Origin: Candidatus Heimdallarchaeota archaeon
GTDB lineage: Archaea > Asgardarchaeota > Heimdallarchaeia > Heimdallarchaeales > Heimdallarchaeaceae
Length of the DNA stretch: 10,335 nucleotides
Assembly: GCA_018238545.1 (NCBI GenBank)
Contig: JABCTC010000073.1
Coordinates: forward strand, 1-10,335
Direction of reading: 5' to 3'
Shown: in pieces, positions 2,924 to 10,335 of the stretch
Layout of the letters: the number at the start of each line of letters is the position of its first letter
Numbering within the stretch: position 1 is the first letter of the stretch
Program-made: the position numbers and the translations under genes
The notes under the pieces: generated by a model
The model's database searches: none
What the model was told of the DNA's origin: nothing
What the model saw: the letters and a program-made list of their open reading frames with translations, nothing else

Positions 2924-3672
2924 AACTAGTTAGATTCATACCTTAAACTTAGTTCTAGATTGCACAAAACACCCTTTAAACCTGTAATTTGAGCTGAAAA
3001 TACATTATTGTCGAGAATAAGAACTTAGAAACATGAAAAGTACAAATTTTATCTATCAAAGGCCATAAGTTCGGTAATTTTTCTCTCGTACTATTTATGT
3101 CGGGAGTTGTACAAAGAAATAGACTTTCAAGTAAATCGTTACTCAATAAACATTTCATGAGAATTTTAAAATAGTTTGTTGAATAAAGATATTCTAGAAT
3201 AGGCGTATTAATTGTGCAGAATTAAGATTTTTAATAGATCATTGAACAAGCAAAAAACAAAACATAGAACATTTTGAGTTAAGCAACTAAATACTGTTGA
3301 TCGTTAACAGAAGTACTAAGATAAGCGAATACAATAGTTTCAAGAATATGGGAAAAAAATTTCACAAAATTTTATTGAACTTGCTTCAGGAAAATTACCG
3401 ATAGTTAATTTACTAATGGGTGGAAGAAATTTACAGTTCAACTATGATAGATTAAGAAAATTAAATCCCAAGTAATGAATACCCTAAGATATTGATAACA
3501 AGTTAGAATAGAATTCTGAAAGTTGAATAAAGAAGAAATCAGCCTGCACAAGGAAACAATATGGACAAATATTAATTAACTTGAAAACTAACTTAGCGAC
3601 CTTAAAGTAGCGAACACAGAGAATAGTTGCCTTTTCATAATACACAAATAATACAATTAATATACTAGTTAA

Positions 3673-3724
3673 CTACAGGGGTATTCTGTTGAAAATGTTT
3701 ATATTGGCAACAAAACCCTTGTAG
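3673..3724. repeat. Imperfect inverted repeat bracketing the promoter of the 3729 gene
   Basis: Left arm CTACAGGGGTATTCTGTTG (3673-3691). Right arm CAACAAAACCCTTGTAG (3708-3724), whose reverse complement is CTACAAGGGTTTTGTTG. The arms align with 1 mismatch and 2 single-base gaps. Confidence 0.55.
3691..3705 (+). promoter_or_regulatory. Putative BRE-TATA promoter (GAAAATG-TTTATATT), likely leaderless
   Basis: TATA-like element at 3698-3705, about 24 nt before ATG 3729, with a purine-rich BRE-like stretch upstream and no SD motif. Confidence 0.55.
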
Positions 3725-3728
3725 AAAC

Positions 3729-4259
3729 ATGATTGAAGAAGTAAGAGATTTACTCAAACGTATTGATCAAATAATTGATTCAGAATCAAGAAGGATGACT
3801 GATCAGATCGATGAACTAAAAGAAGAACTAAATGAATTAAAGGAATCTGGAGAGAACTTCAGTTTGATTAGAGATGAAATTAAGAACCTTACTTCACAAG
3901 TAGATGAGATAACATATGAACGAGATAGCCTTCAGAAAACAGTTGAAAAGCTTTCACCTTTAGAGAGTATAACTAAAGAATTAAGCGAACAAGTAAAAAA
4001 TTTAACACTGCAGCAAGAGGGATACATTTTCACAATTAAGGTAATAGCAAATTGGCTACCTAGTCAAAAAGAGAACATCGATGTTCTTGTAGCTTTATCG
4101 TCATCACCAAACCACACTTGTACATTGAAAGAATTACATAGCAAAACAATAATCCCTGAAGTAACATTGAAGAATCGTGTTCTTCCTATCCTAGAAGATA
4201 ACTCACTGATAAAACTAGAGGGGAAGGATGTTAAACTTACAATAAAAGAGAGTGAGTAA
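3729..4259 (+). CDS. Coiled-coil protein with probable C-terminal winged helix-turn-helix domain
   Basis: Residues ~1-100 show E/K/L heptad character. The C-terminus (IDVLVALSSSPNHTCTLKELHSKTIIPEVTLKNRVLPILEDNSLIKLEGKDVKL) follows a wHTH pattern. Confidence 0.7.
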   Translation: MIEEVRDLLKRIDQIIDSESRRMTDQIDELKEELNELKESGENFSLIRDEIKNLTSQVDEITYERDSLQKTVEKLSPLESITKELSEQVKNLTLQQEGYIFTIKVIANWLPSQKENIDVLVALSSSPNHTCTLKELHSKTIIPEVTLKNRVLPILEDNSLIKLEGKDVKLTIKESE

Positions 4260-4327
4260 TAGCTATAGAACGTTTGTGTAAGAAGTTCCGCAAAGTTAAA
4301 TAAGACAAATTGTTAAACATAATATAC

Positions 4328-5140
4328 ATGAAAAAAATACTCAAATCTCGTCGAGGAGTTTCAAGTATTATATCAACGCTAGTAATCTTTACAGTAATGG
4401 TTTCTGCTTTAGGTTTGGCTTTTTCGCAAATAATTCCTTCACTAGAAAGGTTTCAGACACAAAGTGATCTAACAGCTGCAACAAACACTTTCTTATCTTT
4501 TGATTCAGAAATTAAAACACTGATCAACACACCAGACAATTCTTCAAGCGTATTAAGATATAATCTTGATAATGGGATACTAGATTTGAAACAAAATAGA
4601 GAAATATCCTTAATGATAAATTCAGGAGGAGTTGCTTTATTGAATAAATCCTATTTCACAGGAGAGGTTGAGTATAAAATAGCAGGGAATTTTAAAGGGT
4701 TAGGAGGAGCGATATACGACTTTGGTAGCCCATTATTACTTGTTTATTCGCTTAACAGAACAGCGCAAATGATGAATATTGTTCACCAAACATTTGATGG
4801 ATACAAAACCATTCAATTATACTACAGTGTTTTTGTGAGCATAGAAATAACAAGTGAAACAGATGTAGAAGTTAATTTCATGATAGTTCACTTGAATACA
4901 TCAAAAACCTTGGATGGGCAAGGAGAGTATTTTCCAATAGTAAATACACAAGATAAGATCCAGATTGTGAAACTAAGTCAAGTGATAGAAAGTTTTAATC
5001 TTGGTGAACAAAGTGATGAACTATCTATAAAAGCTCAAACCGCAGGTTTCTCGCAGAATATAGCTTATACATTAGCCCCGCCAGTTTTCTCATTAACTGT
5101 TAATATCATACACATAAATATCGATTTTCGCACTGTATGA
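4328..5140 (+). CDS. Archaeal type IV pilin/archaellin-like protein with class III signal peptide
   Basis: From ATG 4328: MKKILKSRRG|VSSIISTLVIFTVMVSALGLAF, i.e. basic leader, Gly at -1 and a hydrophobic N-helix (PibD/FlaK substrate pattern). The remainder looks beta-rich with N-X-S/T sequons. TTAAATA at 4296-4302 supports this start. Confidence 0.8.
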   Translation: MKKILKSRRGVSSIISTLVIFTVMVSALGLAFSQIIPSLERFQTQSDLTAATNTFLSFDSEIKTLINTPDNSSSVLRYNLDNGILDLKQNREISLMINSGGVALLNKSYFTGEVEYKIAGNFKGLGGAIYDFGSPLLLVYSLNRTAQMMNIVHQTFDGYKTIQLYYSVFVSIEITSETDVEVNFMIVHLNTSKTLDGQGEYFPIVNTQDKIQIVKLSQVIESFNLGEQSDELSIKAQTAGFSQNIAYTLAPPVFSLTVNIIHINIDFRTV

Positions 5141-5563
5141 GAGAAAACAAGTAAAAATAATACTGACGAAAAAGGATATAATAGATAGCAATCATGTCTA
5201 TTTAGCGAAGTTTTCTCGTTTGAGATTGGACTTATGGGTGTAAAACCCTTGTATGATATTCTCATTTCGAAACTTCGCTACCCATATTTATCTTCTGATG
5301 GATTTACTATTTTAGCTAGTTTGTTCGTTCTACATAATGCTTTAGTGGATAATGACTGTTTAATGAGATATACAATAGGTGTTACCGCTTTCATTATTGT
5401 TTTAGTATTACGACCCACCCCTGTGGCATTTTTAATCTTTTTATGGAAAATGCTTATTCAATTGATATTTGTACTAGTATAACGGTTTCTTTGTCAGTTT
5501 TTTTCTTGTTGTCTTTTAGTATGTTCATCTTCTTCTAAGTATAACGTAAACGAGTGATGAACA

Positions 5564-5632
5564 ATGATGAAACAAAAATATGATCCTGAAGACGGAGACG
5601 AATCAATAACCCCACCATTATGGCAACCTTAA
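5564..5632 (+). CDS. 22-aa micro-peptide A, MMKQKYDPEDGDESITPPLWQP (alternative start 5567)
   Basis: ATG...TAA with an SD-like GAGTGA at 5552-5557 and a downstream T-tract. 18 of 21 aligned residues match the paralogue at 7427-7495, and five codons differ synonymously. Confidence 0.8.
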   Translation: MMKQKYDPEDGDESITPPLWQP

Positions 5633-5640
5633 TTGCCTTA

Positions 5641-5655
5641 ATTTTTTTTATTTTA
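5641..5655 (+). terminator. Oligo-T terminator after micro-peptide A, abutting a possible TATA (TTTATAAA, 5652-5659) for the next gene
   Basis: T8 run about 10 nt after the stop, mirrored after peptide B. Confidence 0.55.
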
Positions 5656-5687
5656 TAAATTATAGAAAATGCAAGTAAACTGCAATT

Positions 5688-7328
5688 TTGGTAAGCTACT
5701 TTAAATATTCATCTTCTGAAAGCTTATTGGTGCACAACTTGCTTATTGAGGAATTGGCTTCCAAAGTTGAATTTGCAAAGTCTAAAGAGAATCTTAGAGA
5801 AATCCTAGGAGATATATGTCTTCTCTCATCAAATGAAAGATCTAACAAGGAATTAATGTTGTTATTAGACAAAGCAATAGAAAAAAGTGAATTATTGGAT
5901 GATGAAAAATCATTGGTAAATTTGATTGGCTATAAAATTCCTGTATTATATAATAATCGTGAAAATGCTTCAGAGGTGCGAAAATTAATAGCAAGAATGC
6001 AGTTGATTTCTGAAAATAATAATTATAGTGATATATTAGCTTGGACATATTCTTATATTTGGTATATTGAAAAATTTGAGGAAAATAAGAAAAAAAGTAT
6101 TGAAGCCTTAGAACATTCTCTAAAATTGTTAGATGGGCTTTCAAATTATGATGAATATATTTATCACTTTATTAGATATTCTTATGCAGTCGAACAATGG
6201 CTGAATAATCATGACATTGAAAGTGCTACAATATTGGAAGAGTGTTTAATTTATTTTTTCAGAGAAGGGTTTTATAGGAGTTTAGCTCAAGTATTTGGTC
6301 TTTTAAGCATAATCTATACAAGAATGCATGAAAGTAAGAAAGCATTAAACTTAAGCAATCAAATTCTCGCTAACCGATTTATCTTTGACAGTTTGCCACT
6401 AGATGTAAGAGGTATAATTTATTATTTCACAGGTTTAGGGCATATGCTAAATGCTAATTTAGCAATAGCTGAATCGTATTTCAATGAGGCTTATAATATC
6501 CTTAAACCAATCTATAAGGATAGTATTTACTACAGCAATTTTCTTATTCTTCATTCTTATCTTGCAACTGTTAAAGGATTACAAGGCAAAACCGATCAAG
6601 TTTATACGCTAACTAAAGAAGCAGAGATTCTTCTTCAAACAGATTATATAAAAAGCAATTTGGATGAAAATACAAGAAAACAGATTGTTCATACCCTCAA
6701 TCTCGTGAAGTTCTACAACATCTCATGTCTAAGCTGTTATAATTATCAGGAACATCAAGAACTGATTAATGAAATTAGTAAAGGTTGTAAAGACCTATAC
6801 AGTGATTTTATGACTTTTAGTGAATTTATTCTTAACTCGAATCTTGATTCTGATAAGCTTCAACGTCTAATGACAATTGATAATTTTAGTATTAATCGTA
6901 TAAAACACCTGATCGAGTTTATGCTTGAAAAGCAAAAATTAGAAGTAAAAATCAGCCAAGAACAAAAAGCTCTGAATTATATTTCTATTTTAGAAAAGCA
7001 CGTAACAACGAGCAAGACTACATTTATAGAACATGCTTATAGGGATCTCCTTATAGCTCAGCAGCTGTTTTCACTTAAAAGATATGCAGAAATCTCTCCA
7101 CTTCTCAAGCAATATGAGAGTAGACTCAAACAAATTGAGGTTCTAGAAATGCGTATCTTCATAGAAGCTTTTATTCAAGTAGGTGCATATAAGAACGGAG
7201 ATCCTCTTGGTTCAGCTTTACAGTATATGGCAATAAAGAAATGTAGACTATATGGATTCTCTAGATTGGAATATACTCTATTGAATTACCTACAATTGCA
7301 ACAGAAGGAAATAACAAGAACTATATGA
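5688..7328 (+). CDS. All-helical TPR-like hypothetical protein (546 aa)
   Basis: Repeated amphipathic helix pairs with TPR-type patterns (LAQVFGLLSIIYTRMHESKKALNLSNQIL; GIIYYFTGLGHMLNANLAIAESYFNEAYNIL; HSYLATVKGLQGKTDQ). No TM segment or recognisable catalytic motif. TTG start. Confidence 0.75.
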   Translation: MVSYFKYSSSESLLVHNLLIEELASKVEFAKSKENLREILGDICLLSSNERSNKELMLLLDKAIEKSELLDDEKSLVNLIGYKIPVLYNNRENASEVRKLIARMQLISENNNYSDILAWTYSYIWYIEKFEENKKKSIEALEHSLKLLDGLSNYDEYIYHFIRYSYAVEQWLNNHDIESATILEECLIYFFREGFYRSLAQVFGLLSIIYTRMHESKKALNLSNQILANRFIFDSLPLDVRGIIYYFTGLGHMLNANLAIAESYFNEAYNILKPIYKDSIYYSNFLILHSYLATVKGLQGKTDQVYTLTKEAEILLQTDYIKSNLDENTRKQIVHTLNLVKFYNISCLSCYNYQEHQELINEISKGCKDLYSDFMTFSEFILNSNLDSDKLQRLMTIDNFSINRIKHLIEFMLEKQKLEVKISQEQKALNYISILEKHVTTSKTTFIEHAYRDLLIAQQLFSLKRYAEISPLLKQYESRLKQIEVLEMRIFIEAFIQVGAYKNGDPLGSALQYMAIKKCRLYGFSRLEYTLLNYLQLQQKEITRTI

Positions 7329-7426
7329 AATTCAAGGTGGGGATTCTTTGTTCGTTAGAAGTTATATTTGTCTCATAATTTCCTTGGATATTATTATCGT
7401 TACCTCTACTAGATTATTGATAATCT

Positions 7427-7495
7427 ATGAAACAAAAATATAATCCTGAAGACGGAGACGAAAGTATACTTCCCCCTTTGTGGTTACCCGGTTAA
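7427..7495 (+). CDS. 22-aa micro-peptide B, MKQKYNPEDGDESILPPLWLPG
   Basis: ATG 7427 to TAA 7495, paralogous to 5564-5632 and followed by a T-tract. Confidence 0.8.
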   Translation: MKQKYNPEDGDESILPPLWLPG

Positions 7496-7502
7496 CACTA
7501 AC

Positions 7503-7521
7503 TCTTTTTTTCTCTTTATTT
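7503..7521 (+). terminator. Oligo-T terminator after micro-peptide B
   Basis: T7 run within a pyrimidine-rich tract, about 10 nt after the stop. Confidence 0.55.
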
Positions 7522-7682: not shown

Positions 7683-8528
7683 ATGGATCAAATAGTTCGC
7701 TTCAGTAATGTATCAAAGAGATTTCAGTTATTCTGGGAGGAGATAGTCATATTTAAGGAGATTAATCTAGAGATTGATAGAAACGAACTAGTTTTATTAT
7801 ATGGTCCTAGTGGAAGTGGAAAAACAACTCTACTTAATATGCTTACAGGTCTCATGCACCCAAACGCAGGAGAAATACAAGTTGCTGGGTTATTCATAGA
7901 TTTGATTGAAGACAGAGAAAAAGCTGATTTTCGCTCAAACTACCTCGGAATAGTTTTTCAAGAAAACAACCTTGTTTCTACACTAACAGTCAGAGAAAAT
8001 ATAGTCCTCTTCCAGGAACTCTGTGGTTTTGATGGAGAGGAGGAGGAAAGGGAGAAGAAGATTGACGGATTACTAAAAAAATTAAAGATAGATAATAGGA
8101 AAGATAGTTTTCCAGCTCAGCTAAGCGGAGGAGAAAAGAAAAGAGTAGCCATAGCAAGAGCTTTGTCTAATGATCCACATATACTAATTTTAGATGAACC
8201 TACAGGAAACCTAGATCGCGAATCAGCAGATATGTTATGTGACTTAATCAACGAGATTTTTACTACAACAGATATCACAATAATTGTTGCATCTCACGAC
8301 CAGAAGATGAAAGAGATGGCATCAACAATATACAAAATAGGTTCACAAGCAGTGGTTCTGGAAGAAGACCATCCTGAAAGAAGAAAAAGGGATGATATCA
8401 AGTATAGAGCTATTGGTTCTATGGAAATGCAAGAGGAAGAAGAAGTTGAACTCAATGATGGATACTCAGAGAAAGAAGTAATGAACATGACAGAGGAAGA
8501 ACTAGACTTCATAGAAGAAGAAGAGTAA
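7683..8528 (+). CDS. ABC transporter ATP-binding protein, LolD/MacB/FtsE-like, with acidic C-terminal tail
   Basis: Walker A GPSGSGKTT, Q-loop GIVFQ, signature LSGGEKKRVAIARAL, Walker B/D-loop ILILDEPTGNLD and H-loop VASHD. Confidence 0.93.
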   Translation: MDQIVRFSNVSKRFQLFWEEIVIFKEINLEIDRNELVLLYGPSGSGKTTLLNMLTGLMHPNAGEIQVAGLFIDLIEDREKADFRSNYLGIVFQENNLVSTLTVRENIVLFQELCGFDGEEEEREKKIDGLLKKLKIDNRKDSFPAQLSGGEKKRVAIARALSNDPHILILDEPTGNLDRESADMLCDLINEIFTTTDITIIVASHDQKMKEMASTIYKIGSQAVVLEEDHPERRKRDDIKYRAIGSMEMQEEEEVELNDGYSEKEVMNMTEEELDFIEEEE

Positions 8529-8552
8529 AACTAAATGTGTGAGTGGATAGAG

Positions 8553-10335
8553 ATGATAGGACAACTGAAATTTGCTTGGATTGATTTTAGAAGATCGTTC
8601 CTAGGCTCACTATTTACCTTTATTAGCCAGATAATAACCTATTCAGCGATTACAATCAGCATTGGCTTATTCTCACTAATGAGAGCTAATCTCCAAATGT
8701 CATTAGATTATGTTTATTTTAGTTCCTACATGCTAATTACAATTTTTTTCATAGTGGTTTGTATAATAATTGGAATAATTGTAACCATCAGATCAATAGA
8801 TCTTAAGTTTCAAGGCCAAAAAGATGACATAGCTATAATGAAAAATGTAGGAGGGAAAAGTAGGTGGATATATAGCTACTTCATCTTCAATCAGATATTA
8901 ACAGCTGTAATAATGCTATTATTGGGGATAATACTAGGGTTAATCGTTCTAGTTATAACAAGCGTTTCCTTTGGCTTTGGGAGCATATTTAGCTATGTAG
9001 GATTTCTGCCAATTCTTGCAGGAAACTTGGCAATATTGGTTTCTTCATATCTTAAAGCACATTATACAATATTGAAATTCATTAGTGAAAAAGACTTTGA
9101 AATATCTTCAAGTAGTTTAAGTAACTACAAGAGCATCTTTGAATTTGATGCAGTAATAAACAAGTTTAGTTCATCAGTAAAACTAGGAGTAAAGAATTTC
9201 CTAAGATCAGGAAAGGTGCTAACGAGTCTTCTATTTAGCTTCTTTCTAATTTTCGCCTCAATTTCATTCGTTTTGGGACCATTAACAATAACTGAAACAC
9301 ATTATGTAAATATGAATAATAGATTTGAAGATTATTCTTATGTAATAGGATCACCAGATGCGATAGATTTCTTTAATCAGAGTTTACCAGTTCAAGAATA
9401 TAGTAATAGTTCCTATACTGGATTAGATAATGACCTAGAACAGTTCTATAATACTTCAATATCACCTCAACTATTAACGGAATTAGGGGAGATAGGAGTA
9501 ACGTATCAGAAGTACTTCATATCAAAACTGCAAGTACAAGAATTACCAGGGTATGAAATATTGAATGATATATACTTACCAATAGGGCAAGATCGTAAAG
9601 TATATGCTACAATAATAGGATATGAAGATATCAGTTTTGAAGAAAATGAATATATAGCAGGGACCAACCCGAACCCTTCGAAAGATGAGGTGTTGATAGG
9701 TGATTCATTAGAAGCTAAACTATTTGATAACAGCACACTTCAAAAATTAAAACTTCATGATGATTCAAATCAGTACAAAATTAGTGGGGTAGTAATAGAT
9801 AGTTTTGCAGCAGGATACAGTATCTATTGCCCATTGAGTAAATTAATCGCAGAGGGAGTTGCTAATGGGACTAATTTGCTTATGTTAGAAAATGTAGATG
9901 CAGCAGTTTATGATGAAATAAGTGAGATTTTGGAAGGATATGGATATCAAATAGTAAGTATTGAGAAGATGATCGATCAAAGTCTAGAGAGTTATGACAA
10001 CTTTACTAATATGTTTAAAGTGCTAGGAGGAGTAATGTTCGCAATATTTTCATTTCAAGTAATAGTATATTCATTCCTGTATTTCATAACATATAGAAAA
10101 GATTTCGTATTACTATACAGGCTAGGAATAAGAAAGAAAAGAATGTATGGAGCAGTTATAACGGCAATACTTCTACAAATAATTCCAGGGATAGCTTTAG
10201 GAAGCTATTTTGGAGCAATAATAGGAAGATATTTCCTTGTACCAAATGCAATATTATCAAACTTTGCAGTGATAATCATAGCAGTAATAGTGGGATTCAT
10301 ACTAATAGCAACAACTGCTTCAATCTACGCAAGTA
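8553..10335 (+). CDS. FtsX/MacB-family ABC permease with two FtsX units, 3'-partial (not in the ORF track)
   Basis: Open from ATG 8553 (alternative 8535) to the window end: MIGQLKFAWIDFRRS... It has two coupling motifs (QKDDIAIMKNVGGKSRWI; YRKDFVLLYRLGIRKKRM), a second-unit start (KLGVKNFLRS) and an extracellular domain with DEVLIGDSL and YKISGVV. It directly follows the ATPase. Confidence 0.9.
   Translation, partial: MIGQLKFAWIDFRRSFLGSLFTFISQIITYSAITISIGLFSLMRANLQMSLDYVYFSSYMLITIFFIVVCIIIGIIVTIRSIDLKFQGQKDDIAIMKNVGGKSRWIYSYFIFNQILTAVIMLLLGIILGLIVLVITSVSFGFGSIFSYVGFLPILAGNLAILVSSYLKAHYTILKFISEKDFEISSSSLSNYKSIFEFDAVINKFSSSVKLGVKNFLRSGKVLTSLLFSFFLIFASISFVLGPLTITETHYVNMNNRFEDYSYVIGSPDAIDFFNQSLPVQEYSNSSYTGLDNDLEQFYNTSISPQLLTELGEIGVTYQKYFISKLQVQELPGYEILNDIYLPIGQDRKVYATIIGYEDISFEENEYIAGTNPNPSKDEVLIGDSLEAKLFDNSTLQKLKLHDDSNQYKISGVVIDSFAAGYSIYCPLSKLIAEGVANGTNLLMLENVDAAVYDEISEILEGYGYQIVSIEKMIDQSLESYDNFTNMFKVLGGVMFAIFSFQVIVYSFLYFITYRKDFVLLYRLGIRKKRMYGAVITAILLQIIPGIALGSYFGAIIGRYFLVPNAILSNFAVIIIAVIVGFILIATTASIYAS

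Follow-up and report, generated by a model that had tools for sequence, protein, structure and literature searches.

The whole stretch of DNA analyzed here (the window) comprises 10,335 nt and represents the complete contig C10 of a Heimdallarchaeaceae metagenome-assembled genome (MAG; genome G000), whose assembly amounts to 3.63 Mb with 34% GC and 92% completeness. It contains a gene for a solenoid protein of tetratricopeptide repeats (TPRs), which is flanked on the same strand by two 22-codon genes, pep1 upstream and pep2 downstream (Table 1). A preliminary description of the locus had reported two such open reading frames (ORFs) 55 nt before and 98 nt after a TPR-like gene of 546 aa, each with its own T-tract. 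Both ORFs were found at the claimed places and in the same orientation as the long ORF (5688-7328), and a T-tract follows each of them. The two distances are correct as measured to the maximal ORF, which starts with the TTG at 5688 and yields the 546 aa. However, comparison with paralogues and a public gene call of 532 aa (P0060) set the real start at the GTG at 5730 or the TTG at 5739, which shortens the protein to 529-532 aa. As this start lies behind a TATA box, the true gap between pep1 and the TPR gene measures approximately 100 nt and holds a promoter. The analysis of related genomes verified that pep1 and pep2 are real, unannotated genes of a family of tiny acidic peptides that is limited to the Heimdallarchaeaceae. 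Peptide and TPR gene together constitute a lineage-specific two-gene cassette of this family, which combines an acidic peptide of 18-30 residues with a TPR solenoid of about 530 residues.

Table 1. Features of the window in and around the peptide/TPR cassette
Feature	Position	Strand	Remarks
pep1 promoter and 5' leader	5492-5563	+	same blocks before most of the 110 peptide genes; role suggested by position and conservation
TGTCA block of the pep1 leader	5492-5496	+	
TATA-like TTTTAGTAT of the pep1 leader	5514-5522	+	
AAGTATAAC block of the pep1 leader	5537-5545	+	
Shine-Dalgarno-like GAGTGATG of the pep1 leader	5552-5559	+	
pep1, 22-codon gene, MMKQKYDPEDGDESITPPLWQP	5564-5632	+	proximal upstream peptide of the TPR gene; member of the 110-gene family
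T8 tract after pep1	5642-5649	+	probable archaeal terminator of pep1
Tandem TGCAA-N6-TGCAA	5670-5685	+	11-bp period, on the 5' side of the TPR TATA box; putative binding site of a regulator
TATA box TTTAAATA of the TPR gene	5700-5707	+	position conserved in class A TPR upstream regions
TPR solenoid gene	5730-7328	+	532 aa from GTG 5730, 529 aa from TTG 5739; maximal ORF from TTG 5688
pep2, 22-codon gene, MKQKYNPEDGDESILPPLWLPG	7427-7495	+	downstream of the TPR gene
T7 tract after pep2	7505-7511	+	
ABC exporter-type ATPase	7683-8528	+	conserved neighbor of the cassette island
FtsX/MacB-type permease	8535-10334	+	runs on into contig C68

To obtain homologous loci, a search was performed over one genome per species, which yielded 58 loci. 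It was based on 13 closer members, as the full set of 23 family members proved too heterogeneous when aligned. Nearly all loci are labelled Candidatus Heimdallarchaeota or Heimdallarchaeaceae, and each MAG carries several TPR paralogues, often in tandem. Six-frame scans, which covered 63 TPR loci from approximately 25 related MAGs, identified 110 non-redundant peptide genes of 18-30 codons. The genome from which the window derives encodes 13 peptide genes and about nine TPR paralogues (six close and three distant) on contigs C10, C68 and C86, and the two types of gene are always adjacent. The resemblance of pep1 and pep2 is thus far beyond chance, and a strongly conserved gene family with at least 110 members has been overlooked by gene finders. 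The exact sequences of the four peptides that were checked are absent from a collection of 15 billion proteins, and the public records examined refer to the TPR proteins as 'hypothetical' or 'TPR repeat protein'. A description of this peptide/TPR family could not be found in a full-text literature search, which agrees with the preliminary description, whose author knew of none.

Between pep1 and pep2, the five synonymous codon differences that had been listed (TCA/AGT, CCA/CCC, CCA/CCT, TTA/TTG and CCT/CCC) and three replacements (D/N, T/L and Q/L) were all recovered, and the pairwise ratio of nonsynonymous to synonymous change (dN/dS) is 0.12. The selection on the peptide that had been proposed from this single pair is borne out by the whole family, in which the median dN/dS is 0.24. 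The mean proportion of synonymous differences (pS 0.71) is saturated, while that of nonsynonymous differences (pN) is 0.23, and differences are 2.65 times as frequent at third codon positions as at first and second ones. Invariant residues make use of all synonymous codons, with four Pro codons at each Pro and both GAT and GAC at each Asp. The varied synonymous codons and the low dN/dS locate the conservation at the protein level and not in an RNA or DNA element, and judging from these codon patterns purifying selection is acting on the peptide.

The peptide alignment contains an invariant D-P, a G-D and a P-P-x-W-x-P, after which zero or one residue precedes the stop. At the sequence level, this W-x-P ending with its 0-1 additional residue was present in 108 of 110 peptides. 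Altogether, 17 of about 22 residues are conserved, and three positions vary strongly, namely the one preceding P-P (L/T/G/M) and those on the two sides of W (L/A/M/G/V/F/I before it, F/Q/R/S/W/L/H/T/C after it). The last of these covaries with the terminus: W-F is always followed by P-N, peptides with W-Q, W-R, W-H or W-W always end at P, and in the case of W-S, W-T, W-C and W-L one more residue often comes after the P. Both the fixed distance of W-x-P from the stop and this covariation would fit the recognition of a free C-terminus. Mimicry of the tail of a larger protein was considered and rejected, as among the ORFs of at least 80 aa in the genome none terminates in P-[PS]-x-W-x-P and none carries the acidic-PPxW motif. 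The median net charge of the peptides is -4 and their longest hydrophobic run spans four residues, in line with the earlier remark that they lack a hydrophobic signal sequence; neither a signal peptide nor a membrane anchor was detected in the 110 peptides.

The pairing of peptide and TPR gene is nearly obligate. Of 71 complete non-redundant TPR genes, 64 carry one to three upstream peptide genes on the same strand, which is the outcome of a check that the preliminary description had proposed. Three of the seven TPR genes without an upstream peptide are located at contig edges and two others have a convergent copy. Viewed from the peptides, 99 of 113 matches lie upstream of a TPR gene on the same strand, ten lie downstream on the same strand and four are convergent. 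Up to three peptide genes occur in tandem upstream of a TPR gene, and even a TPR paralogue with 22% identity still adjoins a family peptide. Orphan peptide genes were found in one congener (locus L107), where two copies without a TPR gene are situated between an M42 aminopeptidase and a permease gene.

The distribution of the two families coincides as well. Of the 399 Asgard genomes searched, 29 belong to one GTDB family, and the TPR family was detected in 25 of these; the 370 others gave no match. Five TPR-positive genomes of this family contain 5-11 peptide matches each, and no peptide match was obtained in five genomes of the same family that showed no TPR match or merely a weak one. Only 59 relatives of the TPR protein exist among 1.84 billion representative proteins, and named records, genome loci and the genome search all place the TPR family in Heimdall-type MAGs. 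A scan of viral contigs did not reveal any relatives.

A tree of the 71 TPR proteins was used to follow the two genes across genomes. Its clades carry their own subtype of the proximal peptide, which is retained in different genomes. The TPR clade of the window is accompanied by the subtype EDGDESI[TL]PPLWxP, and examples of the subtypes of other clades are DGDEDILPPGWFPN, GDGDEDIGPP[LIM]W[RQ]P, EPGDDDIGPPLW[HR]P, EPGDEHITPP[FI]W[QS]P and PGNDDDLPPGWFPN. The preliminary description had also asked for covariation of peptide and TPR protein, and their sequence identities were found to be correlated (r = 0.65), a value reached in 0 of 500 permutations; the correlation also holds between genomes. 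On the evidence of the tree and these identities, peptide and TPR gene are inherited as a unit. Such co-inheritance is compatible with cognate recognition but falls short of proof. The proposal of a peptide-receptor pair therefore stands as far as specific pairing is concerned, which is documented by adjacency, co-diversification and phyletic co-occurrence, and its ligand/receptor step is a matter of interpretation. The findings speak no more for than against the other roles that had been named for the TPR protein (chaperone, maturase or antitoxin partner of the peptide); no enzyme or toxin domain turned up. A predicted complex of the TPR protein with pep1 received scores of 0.10, 0.36 and 0.02, which bear on binding in neither direction, as a partner of 22 residues lies outside the calibration of the tool.

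The upstream regions of the peptide genes share a common architecture. Most of them contain a block composed of TGTCA, a T-rich stretch and, some 50 nt ahead of the ATG, a TATA-like TTTTAGTAT or TTTAATAGC; in most of them a Shine-Dalgarno-like GAGTGAT is located 5-8 nt before the ATG. In 97 of 110 peptide genes, at least five T residues in a row occur within the 60 nt past the stop, the median distance being 14 nt. This arrangement suggests that the peptide genes are autonomous transcription units of about 120 nt. A second promoter, of which two classes can be distinguished, is found between the T-tract of the peptide gene and the TPR start, and in the window a Shine-Dalgarno-like GGTG element precedes this start. 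Class A, to which the window belongs, has tandem TGCAA elements with an 11-bp period directly upstream of TTTAAATA, and class B contains a conserved TTTATAAATCAATTTGCGGATTA block. At least two TGCAA elements are present in 20 of 68 TPR upstream regions; genome-wide, there are only 12 TGCAA pairs of this kind, four of which precede TPR genes. The same pair was also observed at promoter-like places elsewhere in the genome, on the minus strand at C114:44619 and C119:42670. The region upstream of pep2 differs in that it lacks the Shine-Dalgarno-like block and no T-tract separates the TPR stop from pep2, so that pep2 is possibly co-transcribed with the TPR gene. Orthologous downstream copies with the same arrangement were identified in L021 (4684) and L022 (4681). 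The intergenic regions did not match any Rfam entry.

No Pfam or NCBIfam family at E <= 0.01 was obtained for three TPR paralogues, no PADLOC family matched the TPR protein, and a features search of a protein atlas returned generic TPR clusters only. The earlier label 'TPR-like' is thus upheld at the level of the fold and finds no counterpart in a Pfam TPR family above threshold. An AlphaFold2 (AF2) model based on a 23-sequence alignment (pLDDT 90.6, pTM 0.89) predicts 29 helices in one continuous solenoid. Its structural neighbors include APC5 (Z 21.4), APPBP2 with its C-degron (Z 18.1), the Rap protein of phage phi105 with peptide (Z 16.9), RapI (Z 15.5), NprR-NprX (Z 15.3) and AimR (Z 13.6), as well as LGN and domain III of MalT. 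In a comparison with predicted structures, the TPR sensor domain of SARP/NB-ARC regulators ranked first, with a TM score of 0.66 over 439 residues. Since helical repeats commonly give Z values of this size, the modelled similarity is indicative of a fold class and not of descent from RRNPP receptors, the family of peptide-binding TPR proteins that comprises Rap, NprR, PlcR and AimR. The C-terminal third is the most conserved part of the protein. When this third was modelled alone to look for a hidden helix-turn-helix (HTH) or other output domain, it folded as TPR and nothing else (pLDDT 86; top match PlcR-PapR, Z 12.2). The alignments to AimR and NprR begin after the HTH of those proteins, and the model starts directly with repeats. 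The failure of the preliminary description to see an HTH was thereby confirmed, and enzyme, membrane or secretion features were likewise absent from the TPR protein.

TPR-based peptide-receptor cassettes have been described for Bacillota and their mobile elements only, and the RRNPPA systems among them belong to Gram-positive bacteria and their viruses (PMC12700828). A full-text literature search did not identify an archaeal counterpart. The Heimdallarchaeaceae cassette was compared to these systems with regard to a TPR-type domain (5-9 TPRs), homology, an adjacent peptide gene, an export signal and an output module. It has the TPR fold and the adjacent peptide gene but shows no detectable sequence homology, no export signal and no HTH output, and it is therefore not a member of RRNPP, in keeping with the earlier remark that it is no standard RRNPP system. 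In both cases a tiny peptide gene adjoins the gene of a cytoplasmic TPR protein, many paralogous pairs exist per genome as for Rap-Phr, and the peptide type tracks the receptor clade. Rap, NprR and AimR superpose on residues ~30-400 of the cassette TPR protein and PlcR on its C-terminal third, and the absence of an HTH is a property shared with Rap. In contrast to RRNPP(A) systems, the host is an archaeon, the peptide lacks a signal sequence and is of acidic, hydrophilic character, and 17 of its about 22 residues are conserved instead of a mature end of 5-10 residues. Further differences are that the peptide gene is mostly located upstream with its own promoter and terminator and that the solenoid is longer, with about 14 helix pairs. 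A phosphatase-type N-terminal bundle as in Rap was not identified, a point on which the model could not decide.

Other systems share individual properties with the cassette. ComR-ComS and Rgg-SHP also employ leaderless peptides with a Trp-containing C-terminal end that are transcribed apart from the receptor. Those peptides are exported by an ABC transporter, and export of the cassette peptide, if there is any, would proceed likewise; ComS and SHP are, however, hydrophobic and their receptors contain an HTH, neither of which applies here. APPBP2 (RxxGP C-degron), HOP (EEVD) and PEX5 (PTS1) resemble the cassette in that a TPR solenoid is combined with a ligand, or in the cassette a putative ligand, whose invariant motif stands at a fixed distance from the free C-terminus, but in these cases the motif forms the end of a large protein whereas in the cassette it is the product of a free-standing gene. 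In STAND/SARP regulators such as AfsR and MalT, the TPR sensor domain, which gave the top match among predicted structures, is fused to nucleoside triphosphatase and DNA-binding domains, and the cassette protein consists of TPRs only.

The interpretation that we prefer, at a probability of roughly 0.45, is that the peptide serves as the ligand of the neighboring TPR protein, probably inside the cell, and that several orthogonal pairs coexist with a logic similar to that of Rap-Phr. In this mechanism, the invariant C-terminal I-x-P-P-x-W-x-P(-x)-COOH of the peptide would be bound in the concave groove of the TPR solenoid. The variable residues ahead of PP and on the two sides of W would provide each of the 6-9 pairs per genome with its own specificity. 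Binding of the peptide may then switch the hold of the TPR protein on a partner protein, which is proposed because the TPR protein has no DNA-binding, enzymatic or membrane part. The peptide would most likely act within the producing cell, since nothing in it suggests export. We infer binding, the specificity positions, the intracellular action and the regulatory outcome alike. Several observations weigh against this interpretation. Tight linkage makes genes co-diversify even if their products never interact. TPR solenoids are alike, and Z values of 13-17 fall into the warning range of the tool for helical repeats. The distal peptides of tandem arrays are often of subtypes typical for other clades, and neither they nor the orphan peptides conform to strict one-to-one pairing. 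If the peptide does bind its TPR neighbor, the Heimdallarchaeaceae would possess 6-9 orthogonal micro-peptide/TPR pairs. As a simple and testable model, such pairs would show how TPR solenoids recognize short linear motifs in the archaeal relatives of eukaryotes, and they might also be an instance of archaeal peptide signaling.

The same pairs could alternatively represent pherotypes of a secreted cell-to-cell signal, in which a leaderless peptide is exported, for example by the neighboring MacB/FtsX-type ABC transporter, accumulates outside, is re-imported and is bound by the cytoplasmic TPR receptor as in RRNPP systems. The matching cassette logic, the many paralogous pairs and the hypervariable positions before and after W would agree with such a signal, and some RRNPPA peptides are indeed leaderless and are exported by PptAB or by routes that are not known (PMC12700828). 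A candidate exporter is encoded next to the cassette of the window. In 16 of 22 genomes, the contig with the single-copy genes for this ABC ATPase and permease also carries cassettes. In 10 of approximately 23 genomes, the permease has a peptide or TPR gene at a distance of up to 1.5 kb; the side on which this gene lies varies, and so does the TPR clade. The ATPase also resembles those of bacteriocin and darobactin exporters, with matches below their cut-offs. Linkage alone nevertheless does not support a functional tie to a dedicated exporter, as the cassettes are inserted into the backbone in some genomes only. Among 19 congeners (L107-L125), the order ATPase-permease-M42 aminopeptidase forms a conserved backbone; cassettes flank the ABC genes on either side in some of them and are missing within about 8 kb in others, and most cassettes of the genome studied here, those on C86, lie away from the ABC genes. 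Gene order thus makes an insertion and duplication hotspot appear a better explanation of the linkage than an operon, even though the transporter may have a part in export. With peptides that have no signal peptide, a hydrophobic run of at most four residues and a median charge of -4, no linked importer or processing enzyme and a receptor without HTH, export of a signal is considered unlikely. The broader notion that the cassettes constitute the first archaeal peptide-based code for communication or recognition, with several orthogonal pairs per cell in the Asgard family nearest to the origin of the cassette, peptides exported by the flanked ABC transporter and sensed by cytoplasmic TPR receptors, and RRNPP-like quorum sensing reinvented independently, is just as doubtful.

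The position of the peptide gene is also reminiscent of a cis-acting arrest leader. Stalling peptides such as TnaC and SecM typically have conserved residues at a fixed distance from the stop, a Pro-Pro and a terminal Pro. By analogy with TnaC and its target tnaA, the ribosome might halt on a nascent P-P-x-W-x-P-stop close to the T-tract, and this would govern read-through into the TPR gene. The upstream same-strand location of 99 of 113 copies, the T-tract at a median of 14 nt past the stop and the presence of such sequence hallmarks in the peptide would be accounted for in this way. What makes an arrest leader quite unlikely is that a conserved TATA box, a Shine-Dalgarno element and a candidate operator belonging to the TPR gene itself lie between the T-tract and the TPR start, and that up to three tandem peptide genes each carry a full promoter, Shine-Dalgarno element and terminator. 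Convergent (four), downstream (ten) and some orphan copies exist as well, and the peptides differ by one residue in the length of the part after W, together with a correlated change. Very unlikely is a conflict or recognition module (toxin-antitoxin-like, defense or self/non-self) or a precursor of ribosomally synthesized and post-translationally modified peptides (RiPPs) with a TPR scaffold. The multi-copy, lineage-restricted nature of the cassettes, their presence or absence at one chromosomal site among congeners, the tandem arrays with decayed copies, the M42 3' end that was duplicated along with the cassettes and a TnpB-like ORF beside the C86 cassettes would fit such a role. They are opposed by the lack of any PADLOC, Pfam or NCBIfam match, of toxin, nuclease or modifying-enzyme domains in the cassette proteins and of cassettes on viral contigs. 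Moreover, no enzyme, including RiPP-type modifying enzymes, is conserved among the neighbors, and Cys occurs in 8 of 110 peptides only.

The surroundings of the cassettes vary, with the ABC transporter, M42 aminopeptidase, HEAT proteins and housekeeping genes as recurrent neighbors. Positions 10225-10335 of the window overlap the start of contig C68 (C68:1-140, locus L015) by about 110 nt, and the permease reading frame reaches its stop there. The permease that is cut at position 10334 hence continues and the cassette island extends into C68, where the gene order is permease, peptide, TPR, convergent peptide, two HEAT proteins, two peptides, TPR, degenerate peptide and M42 aminopeptidase. This continuation adds two TPR genes and five peptide genes before it ends at the M42 gene. 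The last 42 nt of the latter are present three times in C68 (5428-5469, 7516-7557 and 7732-7773), and the two extra copies are situated just upstream of peptide genes, which points to a multiplication of the cassettes at this site by tandem duplication. Judged by gene order and copy number, this is an accessory family with a fast turnover.

Several damaged family members were encountered in the same genome. A TPR gene at C86:61598-63184 is interrupted by a TAG codon. Among the peptide genes, one copy is shortened and lacks an ATG (C68:7628-7681), one contains a premature TGA (C86:5838-5900) and one has lost its stop and encodes 42 aa (C86:4192-4320). The ORF beside the C86 cassettes mentioned above (L014, 3-1814) encodes 603 aa with a Cas12f1-like TNB domain, TnpB-like and just under the Pfam cut-off.

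Further upstream in the window, a coiled-coil protein (3729-4259) is encoded next to a 276-aa protein (4310-5140) that has a hydrophobic segment at its N-terminus and weakly matches DUF7289. As this pair precedes a cassette in six loci, including the window, it can be regarded as a syntenic neighbor. The preceding region of about 800 nt (2924-3728) contains no ORF of at least 61 aa and no Rfam or tRNA match; its interpretation as a decayed cassette was dismissed, as it shows no similarity to the cassette. The sequencing runs that matched the window are DNA metagenomes of marine sediment and cold seep samples from 10 studies, with no RNA run among them. Contigs from four runs break at the multi-copy parts, i.e. 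the peptide promoter with the 5' half of the peptide gene and the C-terminus of the TPR gene, and the apparent joints in these contigs are probably chimeras of paralogues.

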